From positions 4,447 to 68,446 of the forward strand of contig JAZOLZ010000007.1 of assembly GCA_045653505.1 (NCBI GenBank): a DNA stretch of 64,000 nucleotides, given 5' to 3'. The stretch is from Eubacteriales bacterium (GTDB lineage Bacteria; Bacillota; Clostridia; Oscillospirales; CAG-272). Shown in pieces: positions 4,524 to 39,719 of this stretch. The notes beneath the pieces were generated by a model. That model saw only the letters and a program-made list of their open reading frames with translations, made no database searches and had not been told where the DNA came from. Both the position numbers and the translations under genes were made by a program. Every line of letters starts with the position of its first letter. Within the stretch, counting starts at the first letter, position 1.

Positions 4524-5531
4524 TTAATCTTCCTTTTTACCTATGAGTTTTTTTACTTCTTTATCAAAGTCAGAAGTGATTTTTTGTGTCTTATTAAACA
4601 CATCGTATTCATGCGTGGCCTTGCGTTCCGCATCAAGTTTAGACACAGTGCCTTTGCCTTGCAAAATCTTATATTTACGGAATTCCAAAAAGGCGTTGAT
4701 TGCTTCTGCAAATTGTTGCATTGTAAATGTGCGTTCTTCTTCGATTAAATCTTCCACATAGTCAAAGAAGCCAGAAACTGTTCTTTCCAACTTTTTAATT
4801 TGCTTTTCTTCAAGATAATTTTTAGCAATCGTTACGTCAGATTTCAAAATCCTTCCGTCTGGGGAGTGTTTCCAAGTCGTAAGTCCCATATTTTCTTTAG
4901 AACTGTCCGCTTTAGAATAAACGATTTCAGCGGCAGTTTGTCCGGTAATAGCATAGTGGAACTTGTTTTGAACCGTAGCATAAAATTCTTGCGTAATAGT
5001 AGAGTTTTTATCGTAGTCGATACTACACTCAGCAAAAATATCGGTAATTAGTTGCCAAATTCTACGTTCACTTGCACGAATGGAGCGAACTCTTTCCAAA
5101 AGTTCACGGAAATAGTCTTTACCAAAAACCGTTTCGCCTTGTTTTAAGCGTTCGTCATCCAAGACAAAACCTTTTTTAATAAACTCTTTTAATACCTTTG
5201 TTGCCCAAATACGGAATTGTGTAGCACGGTGGGAGTTGACGCGATATCCAACGGAAATAACGGCATCAAGGTTGTAGAATTTGATATTTCTTGATACTTG
5301 ACGAGTGCCTTCAGTTTGAACTACCGAGAAATCCTCGGCAGTTCCTGACTCTTGTAATTCTCCATCTTGATAGATATTCTTTAAATGTAAGGAGATGTTG
5401 TCGGCGGAACAATCAAAAAGTTCTGCCATACCACGTTGGGTAACCCAAATGGTTTCGTCCTTTATCGCAACCTTAACCTTAATATCTTCTTGGTCTATGT
5501 TGTATAAAACAAATTGAAGTTCATTAGCCAT
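4524..5531 (-). CDS. RhuM-family protein
   Basis: TIWVTQRGMAELFDCSADNISLHLKNIYQDGEL ... KFYNLDAVISVGYRVNSHRATQFRIWATKVLKEFIKKGFVLDDERLK is a typical RhuM-family core. Confidence 0.8.
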   Translation of the reverse strand: MANELQFVLYNIDQEDIKVKVAIKDETIWVTQRGMAELFDCSADNISLHLKNIYQDGELQESGTAEDFSVVQTEGTRQVSRNIKFYNLDAVISVGYRVNSHRATQFRIWATKVLKEFIKKGFVLDDERLKQGETVFGKDYFRELLERVRSIRASERRIWQLITDIFAECSIDYDKNSTITQEFYATVQNKFHYAITGQTAAEIVYSKADSSKENMGLTTWKHSPDGRILKSDVTIAKNYLEEKQIKKLERTVSGFFDYVEDLIEEERTFTMQQFAEAINAFLEFRKYKILQGKGTVSKLDAERKATHEYDVFNKTQKITSDFDKEVKKLIGKKED

Positions 5532-35639: not shown

Positions 35640-35668
35640 TTGACTTTTTACTTTTGTTTTGTTATAAT
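35640..35668 (+). promoter_or_regulatory. sigma-A promoter for tRNA-Pro
   Basis: TTGACT, a 17-nt spacer, then TATAAT, ending 18 nt before the tRNA. Confidence 0.55.
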
Positions 35669-35686: not shown

Positions 35687-35762
35687 CGGGATGTAGCGCA
35701 GTTGGTAGCGCGCCTGCTTTGGGAGCAGGATGTCGCAGGTTCAAGTCCTGTCATTCCGACCA
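35687..35762 (+). tRNA. tRNA-Pro (anticodon TGG)
   Basis: CGGGATG acceptor pairs with CATTCCG. D arm GCGCAGTTGGTAGCGC. Anticodon arm CCTGC-TTTGGGA-GCAGG. T arm GCAGG-TTCAAGT-CCTGT. Encoded ACCA end. Confidence 0.9.
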
Positions 35763-35767
35763 AAAAA

Positions 35768-35805
35768 CCAAAGGGAGTAGATTTTTTACTCCCTTTGGTT
35801 TTTTT
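35768..35805 (+). terminator. rho-independent terminator of tRNA-Pro
   Basis: ccaaagggagta-gattttt-tactccctttgg is followed by ttttttt. Confidence 0.8.
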
Positions 35806-35990
35806 GGTTTGTATGACAAGGGTGCAGAACCTGCCTCCTCGTCAGTATGCAGTATTGAACTTTGTAAATCTCGGCTGACGAGGATTAAATTTACTCCTTG
35901 TTTTGCTTGCAAAATTGATGCGTATGTCGCATCAAGGGTAAATTGGGGGCGTTGGTGCTTTGATATACTGTGCCAACGCCTGTTCAACTT

Positions 35991-36012
35991 TCCTGTCATT
36001 CCGACCAAAAAA
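35991..36012 (+). repeat. direct copy of the last 16 nt of tRNA-Pro plus the A tract
   Basis: tcctgtcattccgaccaaaaaa is identical to 35746-35767. Weaker similarity extends into the T loop (ctgttcaac vs aggttcaag). Confidence 0.75.
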
Positions 36013-36046
36013 GACTGTGATTTTGATACATTTCGCTAAAAAGCTA

Positions 36047-36075
36047 TTGTATTTTTCTCCAAAACACTGTATAAT
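36047..36075 (+). promoter_or_regulatory. candidate sigma-A promoter of the PH-like/SPFH operon
   Basis: TTGTAT, a 17-nt spacer, then TATAAT. Confidence 0.45.
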
Positions 36076-36257
36076 AGTGTTGCCAAACTAACTTAATAAT
36101 TGTGATTTGTGGTATTTTTCTATCTTCAGGGATAACTATACCCTTTTTTAGCCACACTTATCTTATGAATTTGATAAAATGCAAATTCCATCTAGTAAGT
36201 GTGGTAATACCCATTTCACATAGAGTTAGTTTGGCGACTATCGGAGTTTGCGTTTTG
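36076..36257 (+). promoter_or_regulatory. structured 5' leader (nested long-range helices), class unknown
   Basis: 12-bp perfect pairing gccaaactaact (36082-36093) with agttagtttggc (36224-36235). It encloses a 9-bp pairing ccacactta (36152-36160) with taagtgtgg (36196-36204). Confidence 0.45.
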
Positions 36258-36290
36258 GTGCGGTTGCTTCGGTAGCCGCACTTTTTGATT
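36258..36290 (+). terminator. intrinsic terminator inside the leader, just upstream of the RBS
   Basis: gtgcggttgc-ttcg-gtagccgcac followed by tttttgatttt. GGAGG lies at 36293 and the ATG at 36304. Confidence 0.6.
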
Positions 36291-36303
36291 TTGGAGGTAA
36301 AAT

Positions 36304-36876
36304 ATGGAGGATTTAAAATTAGCATCCAACGAGGGCATTATTATTCAAAGCACAGACGTTTTATCAGGCACTCGCTTAATGGACGGTTATACCGATGACC
36401 TTATTCTAACTAACTTAAATATCATCTTAATAAAAAGAGGTGTATTTGGAAAGAAAAAAAGTGAGCAAAGATTCCCTGTTTCTGACATCAAAATAATAAA
36501 CAACAAGCCCCAAGTAATGATGAGCAAAATGAATTCTCGCAACGTCGATCAACTGCAAATAGATTTCAAAAACGGAATCCAACATTTTGAGTTTTCCAAT
36601 AAAAACAAAAAAGAAATTGCAAAGTGGATAAAATCTATTCACGAATTATTGAATTGCAAAGAAGACGGCACAACTATGGACGTAGTAACCGATTCATTAA
36701 AAAAGGGTGTAGATTCAATCAAACAAATTTTTGGCATAAAAACAGATACAAAAAACACCAACGATCCACAAACTCAATTTTTAACTGCAAGATGTCACGG
36801 ATGTAAAGCTCCTTTAAAAGGAACAAGAAAACAAATAGTTAGGTGTTCATACTGTGATACCGAGCACACATTTTAA
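36304..36876 (+). CDS. PH/GRAM-like domain protein with C-terminal zinc ribbon
   Basis: The pattern DDLILTNLNIILIKRG...FPVSDIKII...LQIDFKNGIQHFEFSNKNKKEIAKWIKSI resembles bacterial PH-like domains (inference). The C-terminus CHGCKAPL...CSYCDTEH is a zinc ribbon. Confidence 0.55.
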   Translation: MEDLKLASNEGIIIQSTDVLSGTRLMDGYTDDLILTNLNIILIKRGVFGKKKSEQRFPVSDIKIINNKPQVMMSKMNSRNVDQLQIDFKNGIQHFEFSNKNKKEIAKWIKSIHELLNCKEDGTTMDVVTDSLKKGVDSIKQIFGIKTDTKNTNDPQTQFLTARCHGCKAPLKGTRKQIVRCSYCDTEHTF

Positions 36877-36887
36877 CGGAGGTTACT

Positions 36888-38012
36888 ATGGGACTAATCA
36901 AATCATTTGCGGGTGCAATAAGCGGCACCTTAGCCGATCAATGGAAAGACATAATAACTTCAGATGTCTTTGATACCCACACTTTAATTTCTCCTGGAAT
37001 TAGAAAAACGACCGATAACGACAGAGGAAATGATTATAAAGGTTCTTCCGGCGTAATCTCTAATGGATCAAAAATTTTTGTTCCGGAAAACACCGCCGCA
37101 TTTATATTTAGCCAATCAGGTATAGAAGAAATCATCACTGAACCAGGCGGATACATTTATAAAAATGGAGACTCAAGCATCTTTAATGGTGATGGCTTTA
37201 AAAATTCAATTTTTAAGGAATTAGGAAAGAGATTTCAGTACGGCGGTATCACGGATACCAAAAAAGAAATTTGCTTTGTTAATCTAAGGGAAATAAGGGA
37301 TATAAAGTTTGGAACAAGAGGTGCGCAATTATATAACGATATGTTTTACAAATGTGACCTTGAATTATTTGCATTTGGATCATTTACTGTAAAAGTTATT
37401 GACCCCGTAAAGGTCGTTAAAAATTTCGTGCCCGCTGGCACAAACCATTATTCATTTGATGATCCATCTGCAAGAGAGCAGCTAATATCGGATTTTTTAC
37501 AATCATTTATTGTTGCCATTAATTCTCTTTCAAGCGAGTACAGAATCTCTCAAATCCCTTCACAATCAAATGCACTATCAATACAAATTTCCAAAGACTC
37601 TTTAAACGCAGGGTCGTGGGCAAATAGATTTGGCTTCGAAGTCGTTAAGGTGTCGATTGAAAATATAGAATTATCTGATGAATCTAAGGAATTAGTTAAA
37701 AAATATAATGAAAACAGAATGAACTTATCTGCTTATGAAGGCATTTCACAAAAAGCCTCTAATATTGCAGCTCAACAAAAAATTGCAGAAGGTGTAAAAA
37801 ATAATGGCTTTGGTGATATCGGGGGAATGATGTTTGCCACAGGAATGATTCAAGGACTAAATCCCCAAAATGCATCACAAATTGATCAAGGTAAAAAAAT
37901 GTCTTTCAATGAACAAATTGAAACACTAACAAAATTGAAGGGGTTATTAGATGCAGGTATTTTAACTCAAGAAGAATTTGATACTAAGAAAAAAGAAATT
38001 ATGGGGTTATAA
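36888..38012 (+). CDS. SPFH-like (YdjI / virion-core-protein-like) protein with C-terminal SHOCT domain
   Basis: MGLIKSFAGAISGTLADQWKDIITS parallels MGIIKATFQAIGGALADQWQEVIE of 17062-18321. The tail IETLTKLKGLLDAGILTQEEFDTKKKEIMGL is a SHOCT motif. The gene starts 12 nt after the upstream stop. Confidence 0.7.
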   Translation: MGLIKSFAGAISGTLADQWKDIITSDVFDTHTLISPGIRKTTDNDRGNDYKGSSGVISNGSKIFVPENTAAFIFSQSGIEEIITEPGGYIYKNGDSSIFNGDGFKNSIFKELGKRFQYGGITDTKKEICFVNLREIRDIKFGTRGAQLYNDMFYKCDLELFAFGSFTVKVIDPVKVVKNFVPAGTNHYSFDDPSAREQLISDFLQSFIVAINSLSSEYRISQIPSQSNALSIQISKDSLNAGSWANRFGFEVVKVSIENIELSDESKELVKKYNENRMNLSAYEGISQKASNIAAQQKIAEGVKNNGFGDIGGMMFATGMIQGLNPQNASQIDQGKKMSFNEQIETLTKLKGLLDAGILTQEEFDTKKKEIMGL

Positions 38013-38122
38013 TAGTAAAAAAATACAATGTCGCTTTTTTGCTGTAACCAAATTCAAATGGGAGCAAAACTATTCTCCCAAATACACCCATTATAAAATG
38101 GTATCAAGATTTTAGATTACTC

Positions 38123-38164
38123 ACCAAAAAAACAAAAGGAGTAGATTTTTTTACCTTGTTTTTT
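38123..38164 (+). repeat. degenerate copy of the tRNA-Pro 3' tip plus its terminator
   Basis: accaaaaaaacaaaaggagtagatttttttaccttgtttttt versus 35760-35805 accaaaaaaccaaagggagtagattttttactccctttggttttttt. Confidence 0.55.
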
Positions 38165-38432
38165 CAATGTTTTGTTGTTTGTGAGCAGTTTTTCTGTTCT
38201 TTTTTATACTGATAAATTAAGATGTACCGATATCGCAAATCTAATCTGTAAAAAAGTAAATATTTTTGCAAAAAGGTATGGATTTTTTTACAAAAAGGTA
38301 GTATAATATATAGCCGATGAAAAAGAGCTCAACCATAAAGATATCTATGAGAGCATATATAATACCCTCACATCACATCTGAATGATTCTACTCTCACGT
38401 AATCAAAATACTTTTGAAAGAAGGCGTATTCT

Positions 38433-39719
38433 ATGACTCAAACAGCCAGTATCTTTTTGAGTTTGTCCATCGCTTTACTCGCAGGTCTGCTTTTGTCAAG
38501 GCTTGCCAAGCTTGTAAAGCTCCCCGCAGTTACCGCATATCTGATCTCCGGCGTTTTGATCGGGCCTTTCGTGCTCGGATTGCTGAACATTCCGGGAATC
38601 GGTATCACGGCAGACCAAATCGAAGGCTTCGGGCTTATCTCCGATCTTGCCCTTGGCTTTATAGCATTTTCTATGGGAAATGAGTTCAGAATTTCTCAGC
38701 TGAAGAAGATCGGTAAGCAAGCAACCGTAATCGGAGTACTTCAAGCATTGATCACTACCATAGTGGTTGACGTTGCCTTGATCTCGCTGCATTTCGCAAT
38801 GCCTGACACACTCTCCATCCCGGCCGCCATCGTTCTTGCATCGGTTGCGACAGCAACGGCTCCTGCCGCTACGCTGATGGTTATCAAGCAGTACAAAGCA
38901 AAGGGACCGGTTACAGACGTTCTCCTTCCCGTCGTTGCACTTGACGATGCAGTCGGTCTTGTGATTTTTGCCATTTCCTTCGGTGTGGCAAGATCATTGG
39001 GATCAGCAGGCGTAAGTCCGCTTGCTATTGTTCTTGAGCCGCTGATTGAGATTGTTTTGTCGCTGCTGCTCGGCTTTGTGATGGGATTGCTCTTTACACT
39101 CTGCGAGAAGTATTTCCATTCGCGCTCCAAGCGTATGGCAGTTTCGGTTACTTTCATTATGCTGACCGTTGCTATCTCCAACTTGAGGTTTGAAGTTAAC
39201 GGCATACATATTTGCTTTTCATCATTACTTGCCTGCATGATGCTCGGTACAGTATTCTGTAACATCTGCGAGGTTTCTGAGGAACTGATGGAAAGAGCCG
39301 ACAGATGGACTACCCCGGTGCTGATTTTGTTCTTTGTAATCAGCGGCGCGGAGCTTGATCTCTTGGTATTCGCGCAGTGGACTGTCGTGCTCGTTGGTGT
39401 CGTTTACATCATTTCACGTTCTCTAGGTAAATATTACGGCGCAAATATCAGCGCAAGAATGACTAAATCCGACCCCAACATTGTAAAATACCTCGGTATC
39501 ACCTTGCTTCCCCAGGCGGGCGTTGCACTTGGTATGGCCAACAAAGCTATCGAGCTTGGTTACGATGGAGCAATCGTTCATAACATAACGTTATTTGCCG
39601 TCCTGATTTATGAGATCGTCGGACCATTCCTTACAAAAATTGCCCTTACCAAAGCCGGCGATATCAAGGAGGAAGGTCGCACAAGCGCACGTGAAGAACA
39701 CCTTGCCAAAAAGCACTAA
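38433..39719 (+). CDS. cation:proton antiporter (CPA2/Kef-type)
   Basis: LSIALLAGLLLSRLAKLVKLPAVTAYLISGVLIGPFVLGLL is typical of the Na+/H+ exchanger family. About 12 TM helices. Confidence 0.85.
   Translation: MTQTASIFLSLSIALLAGLLLSRLAKLVKLPAVTAYLISGVLIGPFVLGLLNIPGIGITADQIEGFGLISDLALGFIAFSMGNEFRISQLKKIGKQATVIGVLQALITTIVVDVALISLHFAMPDTLSIPAAIVLASVATATAPAATLMVIKQYKAKGPVTDVLLPVVALDDAVGLVIFAISFGVARSLGSAGVSPLAIVLEPLIEIVLSLLLGFVMGLLFTLCEKYFHSRSKRMAVSVTFIMLTVAISNLRFEVNGIHICFSSLLACMMLGTVFCNICEVSEELMERADRWTTPVLILFFVISGAELDLLVFAQWTVVLVGVVYIISRSLGKYYGANISARMTKSDPNIVKYLGITLLPQAGVALGMANKAIELGYDGAIVHNITLFAVLIYEIVGPFLTKIALTKAGDIKEEGRTSAREEHLAKKH

Follow-up and report, generated by a model that had tools for sequence, protein, structure and literature searches.

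Partial tRNA-end repeats bound separate segments of an integrase-less locus at the 3' flank of a tRNA-Pro gene in a Clostridia genome

We analyse the 3' flank of a tRNA-Pro(TGG) gene in a 64,000-nucleotide stretch of DNA (hereafter the window) from a Eubacteriales bacterium of the Clostridia (GenBank assembly GCA_045653505.1, contig JAZOLZ010000007.1, positions 4,447 to 68,446 of the forward strand). Downstream of this gene lie two further partial copies of the tRNA end or of its terminator, a 245-nt segment without open reading frames (ORFs) that we call E1, and an AT-rich cassette of about 2 kb that carries a leader RNA and the genes of a zinc-ribbon protein and an SPFH protein. All three repeat copies, counting the one at the tRNA itself, are real and non-random, and the exact repeat and the third copy bound different segments, not one islet. 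The history that we favour, and to which we give an even chance of being right, is that the locus is a composite, integrase-less accretion at the tRNA 3' flank that took two or more separate insertions to form. Islets that lack an integrase and stand at tRNA hot spots are a known kind of structure; the unusual parts here are the recurrent non-coding units that rebuild a tRNA end, of which E1 is one, and a leader RNA family that is uncatalogued.

The tRNA-Pro(TGG) gene is the only tRNA gene in the window; it is intact and encodes its CCA (35687-35762; ARAGORN, and 69.8 bits against Rfam RF00005). Coordinates are those of the window, and the features of the locus lie on the plus strand. The gene has its own promoter, TTGACT-17-TATAAT with a TG extension (35640-35668, 11 of 12 consensus positions), and ends in a terminator, T1, with a 20-pair stem (35762-35804, folding free energy dG of -31.3 kcal/mol). 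T1 forms the middle of an extended palindrome (35749-35818), in whose right arm the tRNA 3' end is repeated in inverted and degenerate form. We dropped T1 as the usual tRNA-Pro terminator of the clade, a different terminator standing at another tRNA-Pro (locus L197; labels of this form denote loci outside the window).

The first repeat copy consists of the last 17 nt of the tRNA, counted from the end of the T-loop, followed by AAAAA (35746-35767), and the second copy (35991-36012) repeats it exactly, so that the 22-mer TCCTGTCATTCCGACCAAAAAA is found at both places. The original prediction, which placed an AT-rich islet between partial copies of the tRNA end, had given this repeat as the last 16 nt of the tRNA plus the A tract; the exactness stands, and the length becomes 17 nt plus five A. 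The third copy (38122-38175) is made of ACCA, the A tract, a decayed T1 hairpin (dG -7.4 against -31.3 kcal/mol for T1) and 8 further nucleotides. Within it a block of 29 nt is identical to the first copy at 27 positions, and gapped homology extends over about 54 nt (35758-35812 against 38122-38175), reaching a local score of 55 where 500 dinucleotide shuffles give 20.3±2.4 with a maximum of 32. Beyond these 54 nt, the comparison of E1 with the region of copy 3 gives no significant homology.

Copies 1 and 3 contain A/T runs, and a number of further short repeats noted in this region are plainly due to chance, which raises the question of whether these three are also coincidences of low-complexity, AT-rich intergenic DNA. 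We regard that explanation as refuted. Allowing up to three mismatches, the 22-mer has just its two matches in the 64 kb, with 0.00 expected, and not one of 100 shuffles gives even two; none of the 500 shuffles comes up to copy 3, and elsewhere in the window scores stay at 25 or below; and copy 3 starts at exactly the base where homology among the known copies of the islet ends. The repeats on which the original prediction was built thus exist and are clearly significant on formal alignment.

The sequence around the second copy indicates what it may be. Its identity to the tRNA begins at the last base of the T-loop, and it is preceded (~35976-35990) by a degenerate T-stem and T-loop, GCCTG-TTCAActt against GCAGG-TTCAAGT in the tRNA, a form that fits the displaced, attR-like side expected of a T-loop crossover. 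The sequence after it, AAAAAAGACTGTGATTTTGATAC, is homologous at ~85-90% identity both to the trailer of an intact tRNA-Leu(TAG) in L086, where it serves as the left arm of the terminator, and to the DNA 3' of a displaced tRNA-Pro(CGG) end in L016. Because the DNA downstream of copy 2 finds its homologues in tRNA trailers (L086 and L016), we read copy 2 together with the remnant at 36013-36029 (G followed by ACTGTGATTTTGATAC, our motif a-) as the old, displaced end of the tRNA gene; and because copy 2 and this trailer are the old end, E1 is then the insertion that rebuilt the gene with a new terminator.

One could instead suppose that two tandem ancestral tRNA-Pro genes each carried T1, that the second decayed to copy 2, and that the islet landed between its end and its terminator. 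Removing 36013-38122 does join copy 2 to an A tract and a T1-like hairpin, and there is the degenerate T-arm similarity just described. We nevertheless find this origin very improbable: the 185 nt before copy 2 hold no tRNA body, and ARAGORN and Rfam return nothing from them; a perfect 22-nt block beside complete decay is unexpected under neutral decay; and six other tRNAs carry the same kind of unit, with the terminator first and the 3' end alone repeated, two such units standing in tandem at L194.

E1 (35768-36012), bounded by the exact 22-nt repeat, runs from the T1 terminator through an inverted tRNA-end copy and hairpin-rich filler to the direct tRNA-end copy, and it folds at -100.5 to -102.8 kcal/mol according to the span taken. 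The inverted copy is a degenerate version of the last 25 nt of the tRNA at unit positions 43-72, and 2 of 500 shuffles reach its score. When we survey the 50 tRNA genes in all the non-phage Clostridia contigs that were fetched, seven of them, this one included, carry an ORF-less unit of 150-245 nt, each with a terminator first and an exact copy of its own tRNA 3' end last (16-21 nt; 17 in the window, or 22 with the A tract). Besides Pro-TGG, the host genes are Pro-CGG (L016 5071-5234, and L234 on the minus strand), Ser-TGA (L037 from 16816), Ser-GGA (L041 from 2241), Ser-CGA (L194 12045-12426, two tandem 191-nt units) and Leu-CAG (L215, minus strand). A significant inverted tRNA-end copy directly follows the terminator in five of the seven. 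Each unit is specific to its tRNA, and no sequence relationship links the units of different loci; they are therefore not copies of a single transposon. In L177 the tRNA-Ser and trailer of L194 occur with no units, which makes this locus an empty site for the class. A unit is the size of both arms of an integrase attP, and we propose that these may be attP-only or heavily reduced integrative elements. That the tRNA 3' flank is an insertion hot spot, as the original prediction held, is supported.

The cassette body (36030-38114) is AT-rich and contains a promoter, the leader RNA, two genes and a conserved 3' untranslated region (UTR), in keeping with the promoter, structured leader and two-gene operon that had been predicted. 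The promoter, TTGTAT-17-TATAAT with the extended -10 element TGTATAAT at 36068-36075 (36047-36075 in all), was read from the sequence; its position and form recur in the aligned leaders, and a strict promoter scan did not call it. The first gene (36304-36876) encodes a protein of 190 aa that weakly matches bacterial PH-like domains and has a CxxC..CxxC zinc ribbon at its C-terminus, every domain match lying below Pfam cut-offs. In relatives this gene is always paired with the SPFH gene. The second (36888-38012) encodes a 374-aa SPFH protein (Band_7_1, 2.5e-13; C-terminal SHOCT, 7.6e-9) with 4103 homologues in a protein search. Neither protein matches NCBIfam or PDB entries. Against the PADLOC defence models the SPFH protein has no match and the 190-aa protein one weak, partial match, and the PHROG matches of the islet proteins are confined to the SHOCT tail.

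In composition the operon stands apart from its surroundings, at 34% GC with a third-position GC content (GC3) of 27-33%, where the window as a whole has 42% GC and the flanking genes a GC3 of 40-52%; the predicted AT-richness is therefore there. Across copies the operon keeps to 30-37% GC while the host DNA spans 23-50%. Its boundaries are sharp as well. The conserved right end, TGGTATCAAGATTTTAGATTACTCAC (38099-38124), includes our motifs a+ (38101-38115) and b+ (38115-38122), and homology among islet copies stops at the same base in the window, in L086 and in L083/84, immediately after TGGTATCAARATTTTAGATTAYTCAC, with unrelated DNA following. Between window 36035-38124 and L086 1609-3723 the nucleotide identity is 75%. 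On the left, the islet body starts some 20 nt past copy 2, within the old tRNA trailer. The thought that the conserved right end is itself a decayed tRNA 3' half was abandoned, its similarity to tRNA not being significant.

The ends of the cassette do not look like those of a transposon. In three genomes the motif ACTGTRATTWTGATRC stands 3' of a tRNA end, displaced or not, and in inverted form it closes the islet (window 36014-36029 and 38101-38122; L016 5247-5262 and ~5335-5358; L086 1253-1268); it may serve as a site-specific target within the trailer of the tRNA, or be a pair of arms resembling terminal inverted repeats. Tested as such repeats, the a-/a+ arms match at just 11 of 15 positions, and the 9-nt ACCAAAAAA that flanks 36013-38122 in the window has no counterpart duplication at L086, so that on sequence grounds the cassette does not appear to be a transposon, or a miniature inverted-repeat element, with terminal inverted repeats and a fixed target-site duplication.

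Close relatives of the gene pair, with SPFH proteins ~81-88% identical, stand in different contexts: after tRNA-Leu(TAG) in L086; after another tRNA 3' end, with several tRNA-end fragments following and no leader, in L089; and beside RmuC, GIY-YIG and SNF2 genes in DNA of 23% GC in L081, at 82% protein identity. At L089 (1-560) the contig begins with a tRNA 3' end, then come three opposite-strand fragments resembling tRNA 3' ends (~137-245), and then the gene pair. Presence in such unrelated contexts supports the view that the SPFH cassette moves between genomes, and the islet, sought elsewhere as the original prediction had advised, is found behind other tRNAs (L086 and L089) and has no counterpart in the phage, plasmid and viral-contig searches. 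Since the short-chain dehydrogenase (SDR) gene and the antiporter gene of this neighbourhood are also non-syntenic at ~90% identity, a change of context by itself is weak evidence of mobility; composition, sharp boundaries and the variable slot seen in L016 are stronger.

That slot is defined by its right-hand anchor, a cation/proton antiporter gene (38433-39719, Na_H_Exchanger) which with its own promoter and 5' UTR occupies 38259-39719. The antiporter promoter and ~120-nt 5' UTR are conserved across many metagenome-assembled genomes, with a sharp left edge at 38257-38263, and the 5' region (38259-38432) matches no Rfam family. In L016 (4900-8000), tRNA-Pro(CGG) with its mini unit stands ~2.9 kb from the same antiporter and its conserved promoter. 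Between these anchors there is one AT-rich gene for a 635-aa protein of zinc-ribbon repeats. A degenerate, partial copy of the 5' part of the tRNA is found at 4900-4968, just upstream of the gene. Because L016 holds different cargo between the same anchors, we regard the tRNA-Pro-antiporter interval as a variable slot. In addition, a test junction lacking the cassette, in which the left trailer motif ACTGTGATTTTGATAC runs directly into GATTACTC (the final 8 nt of the islet's conserved end), is contiguous in L016 at 22 of 24 identical positions; 30 shuffled junctions give no match in 3.8 Mb.

Two observations touch the antiporter itself. Its promoter (38270-38308) is 72% identical over 39 nt to the cassette promoter (36038-36076), each lying at the left edge of a conserved unit, and this likeness probably reflects shared promoter features. 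The antiporter is also found at 91-93% identity in more than 100 clusters, mostly on short contigs and in varied contexts, including bins labelled Bacteroidaceae.

These comparisons bear on a reading in which E1 is the sole insertion, the SPFH operon is resident, and copy 3 is the operon's terminator, derived from T1 by local duplication or gene conversion. In its favour are the missing integrase, the missing empty site, the observation that flanking genes of similar identity are likewise non-syntenic (context changes are common in the clade), and the L083/84 islet, where an A run and a terminator likewise come after the conserved end. We judge it distinctly unlikely all the same, given the gap in GC and GC3 between the operon and its neighbours, the occurrence of the same operon in the 23% GC DNA of L081, boundaries that are sharp and identical in three contexts, the different cargo of L016 between the same anchors, and the enrichment of leader cassettes after tRNAs described below.

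No integrase or other mobility gene is present among the ORFs at 24-50 kb of the window (±12 kb of the locus), as had been predicted, and the only ORFs between the repeats are the bPH/zinc-ribbon and SPFH genes. Phage and plasmid collections return essentially tRNA matches alone plus one weak leader match; there is one distant viral-contig match, at 60% identity. In the viral scans the tRNA 3' end finds phage tRNA arrays only, and the repeat with its A tract has 0 matches. Compared with an integrase-bearing tRNA island, the locus thus lacks the integrase and has the tRNA regenerated intact; as for direct tRNA-end repeats at both ends, E1 has them as the exact 22 nt, and the islet is flanked by the 9-nt ACCAAAAAA alone, which is all that copies 2 and 3 have in common.

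The classical explanation for such a locus would be tandem accretion by one tRNA-Pro integrase, giving attL, E1, an internal att site (copy 2), the islet and attR (copy 3), with the islet a cis-mobilizable element (CIME) that had lost its integrase. Three repeats in the same orientation and expected order next to an intact tRNA speak for it, as does the joint absence of integration and transfer genes, and for streptococcal elements a route through integration, then decay, then renewed integration at the regenerated site has been documented (PMC5704250). We still hold it unlikely, if worth taking seriously. Copies 2 and 3 have just ACCAAAAAA in common, and copy 3 is preceded by the islet's own conserved end, whose similarity to the tRNA is not significant; attL and attR are convincing for E1 alone; the cassette body starts 20 nt past copy 2, in a trailer common to L086 and L016; and the islet carries no residual gene of, or homology to, an integrative and conjugative element (ICE), an integrative and mobilizable element (IME) or a phage in phage, plasmid, viral-contig and PHROG searches. 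Furthermore, at none of nine other tRNA-adjacent loci (eight cassettes with the same leader and the L086 islet copy) is the tRNA end or the terminator repeated downstream, and the three-repeat pattern is particular to this window among the tRNA-adjacent loci compared. The original prediction of site-specific insertion at the tRNA 3' end therefore keeps its support from the form of the repeat, with the exact repeat flanking the 245-nt unit and not the islet; likewise, the single att-flanked mobilisable islet is supported only in part.

Composite accretion would have proceeded in two steps. In the first, the cassette would land in the tRNA trailer, between ACTGTGATTTTGATAC and GATTACTC, leaving the older ACCA, A tract and T1 on its far side, where they would decay into copy 3. 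In the second, E1 would recombine site-specifically with the T-loop and 3' end of the tRNA, its left junction restoring the tRNA 3' end with a fresh T1 and its arrival pushing the old end (copy 2) and the original trailer inward. Both insertions would need recombinases supplied in trans.

The comparisons themselves show the repeats, the boundaries, the return of such units at other tRNAs and the occurrence of the cassette in unrelated contexts. Several points weigh against this history. The order of events, cassette first and E1 second, and the origin of copy 3, most simply an earlier tRNA terminator, are inferred. T1 is no more than a candidate for the native terminator, since another tRNA-Pro of the clade, at L197, has a different one. 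At its left end the cassette is not alike in the two copies compared, L086 having 340 nt more than the window. The junction found in L016 is on the opposite strand, has outer flanks unlike those of the window, and is no true empty site. For the present locus the search for an empty site in related genomes, as the original prediction had advised, found none in genome-collection, protein and metagenome searches: a scan of genome collections gives 80 antiporter loci at 74-93% identity, none with tRNA-Pro(TGG) or the SDR gene upstream; SDR homologues at 89-92% identity stand in other contexts with no tRNA nearby; the window's own proteins, looked up exactly, have no record; and the tRNA/T1 junction, in both T1 variants, has 0 matches in a metagenome scan. 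Since the full protein search with the antiporter peaks at 93%, no genome of the same species is available, and the best homologues of the flanking genes, at 92-93% identity, are non-syntenic. No phage, plasmid or ICE bearing an attP was found in the viral, phage and plasmid searches. Finally, the history does not account for the inverted tRNA-end copy within the units.

The leader RNA (36082-36292; dG -75 kcal/mol, z = -8.0), present as a single copy in the window, is widespread. A closing helix P1 (36082-36095 with 36224-36237) leads through P2 into a three-way junction from which P3, a short helix, and P4, a long one, arise; P4 is capped by the conserved hairpin GAAUUUG-AUAAAAAU-CAAAUUC; the 3' side holds an invariant 23-nt core, GCGACWATCGGAGTTTGCGTTTT (36234-36256), and an intrinsic terminator with its U run (36257-36282). 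The core occurs exactly in at least 120 metagenome contigs, four viral contigs and several relatives, and since instances were gathered by the exact 23-mer, it is thereby fixed among them and its variation hidden. Copies are known from the window and from L065, L075, L003, L086, L091-94 and L126-L249.

Across 79 aligned copies we see many compensatory pairs in P1 and in the terminator, one P1 column reading UA in 37, AU in 21 and CG in 20, and the great excess of G.U over A.C pairs points to selection on the RNA of this strand. RNAalifold on MAFFT alignments recovers P1, the apical hairpin and the terminator alone; P2 and P4 were established through single-sequence folds, all of which give P1, P2, the three-way junction, P3 and P4, and through a duplex test of cognate against non-cognate strands. 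Cognate pairing is the stronger in each case (-18.2 versus -11.0 kcal/mol for P1, -15.9 versus -8.1 for P2, -17.2 versus -7.8 for P4), with the 5' strands of P2 and P4 just ~34% identical between copies. The leader has three covarying helices, P1, P2 and P4. No Rfam 15 family matches at gathering score, the matches in the window at E<=5 being scattered chance matches; 15 other leader loci give no consistent match to Rfam 15 at E<=1; and literature searches for the core sequence and for a matching RNA motif found nothing.

A same-strand ORF with a ribosome-binding site (RBS) follows the leader in 117 of 125 instances, mostly starting right after the terminator, and in most of the 117 the terminator is followed by an RBS 45-70 nt past the core. 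These ORFs form 76 clusters, representing at least 76 unrelated families with no common pathway, among them zinc-ribbon proteins, lipoproteins, BspA-type leucine-rich repeat proteins, ABC ATPases, SPFH proteins and a 763-aa methylase-like protein. As a candidate riboswitch, the leader has a conserved structured domain, covariation and an expression platform, and lacks a coherent downstream pathway. It is most simply read as a terminator-based regulatory RNA that would respond to some shared signal, and in the window the leader terminator probably gates expression of the two genes.

Leaders are also enriched just behind tRNA genes. Where enough upstream DNA is available, 9 of 74 instances have a same-strand tRNA ending within 800 nt upstream, against a background of ~1%, with 0 on the opposite strand upstream and 0 of 98 on the same strand downstream. 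L177 and L194 have the tRNA, its trailer and a block upstream of the promoter in common (88-93% identity) and differ in leader stems and cargo. The link of the leader to tRNA flanks probably reflects where accessory cassettes accumulate.

Some further observations concern individual leaders. Within the core, GGAGUUUGC is complementary to GCAAAUUCC, a conserved part of the apical hairpin, which would make an alternative pairing possible. An ORF running through the leader was considered and dropped, its frame being broken by A4/A5 length variation in other copies. The motif GTCAAGCACCCGCCAAAGTGCCA stands ~240 nt before the core in L177, L194, L235, L140, L155, L214 and L246; all four members of this subfamily with enough upstream DNA lie behind tRNA-Ser, the other three contigs break there, and the cargo differs. 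At L150 (4240-7017) a leader ~90% identical to that of the window stands 200 nt after an eight-tRNA array and heads the 763-aa N6-adenine-methylase-like protein (NPPY motif), the next gene being convergent and spoIVA-like. MT835503.1 ("Bacteriophage sp.", human faeces) is 72% identical at 378-531 to window 36128-36286, near the 5' end of that contig. On the viral contig IMGVR_UViG_3300010346_002427 (L126 3647-3858) the inner domain is inverted between the P1 arms, in one of ~125 instances, an event that would result from recombination between the inverted repeats encoding P1. In the cwpV-type invertible leader switch of C. difficile a segment between inverted repeats occurs in both orientations; here the P1 arms are inverted repeats, and L126 is the one instance that gives the second orientation.

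It is useful to set the locus beside the systems that it resembles. CIMEs and tandem accretions, such as ICESt1/3 of S. thermophilus and the tRNA-Lys elements of S. agalactiae, are similarly integrase-less, with att-like direct and internal repeats by the 3' end of the target gene; the present locus differs in having no ICE or IME genes or homology, in islet flanks with 9 nt in common, and in that its segment with good att sites is just 245 nt long and non-coding. In the tycheposon model of Prochlorococcus, tRNA-proximal islands grow by repeated integration (bioRxiv 10.1101/2020.12.28.424599). There too partial tRNA copies accumulate, newer arrivals push older ones inward and mostly integrase-less cargo is left; our loci come from gut Clostridia, show no integrase-bearing element among those examined, and combine cargo under a common leader RNA with tiny units of fixed architecture. 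A search of the literature for miniature elements consisting of att sites alone found nothing matching.

Williams is said to have distinguished, in 2002, sublocation classes of the tyrosine integrases that target tRNA genes, one of them with crossover in the T-loop. Our repeats resemble that class in an identity block that starts at the T-loop boundary and extends past the 3' end, and in a displaced copy that is T-arm-like with changed stem bases; the difference lies in the would-be P' arm, which contains the entire 25-nt tRNA end as an inverted copy. To our knowledge such a copy is not a described feature of attP sites, and we know of no integrase for such units. The leader has the order of known riboswitch and attenuator leaders (promoter, P1-closed domain, terminator, RBS, gene), with strong covariation and invariant loops, and departs from them in the absence of an Rfam 15 family and in its many unrelated downstream families. 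In B. subtilis ydjG-ydjH-ydjI adjoin pspA, an SPFH/Band 7 protein standing beside a zinc-ribbon or PH partner. The SPFH protein of the cassette likewise has a small zinc-ribbon partner and a likely membrane-associated role; here the partner is bPH-like with a zinc ribbon, the SPFH protein has a SHOCT tail, and no pspA is nearby.

Considered jointly, these features suggest a wider reading, which we offer tentatively and with less than even confidence: that the leader is a new class of cis-regulatory RNA, and that cassettes and units are placed at tRNA 3' flanks site-specifically. The leader, either a riboswitch that senses a global signal or an attenuator bound by a protein, may then head a large pool of interchangeable and mostly envelope-related cargo genes in gut Clostridia. 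The site-specific processes may use the tRNA T-loop and 3' end together with the conserved trailer motif, and the units may be non-autonomous elements, resembling an attP alone, that repeatedly reset the tRNA terminator.

The flanks of tRNA genes are landing sites for mobile DNA. The landing site described here contains only very small parts: one is non-coding and restores the tRNA end, the other is a two-gene cassette that lacks mobility genes. Were these moved in trans, much of the turnover of accessory genes in gut Clostridia would be invisible to island finders that look for integrases. The leader is the more testable lead of the locus: its distribution, over at least 120 contigs and at least 76 mostly envelope-related families, implies a shared signal acting over a large accessory regulon.

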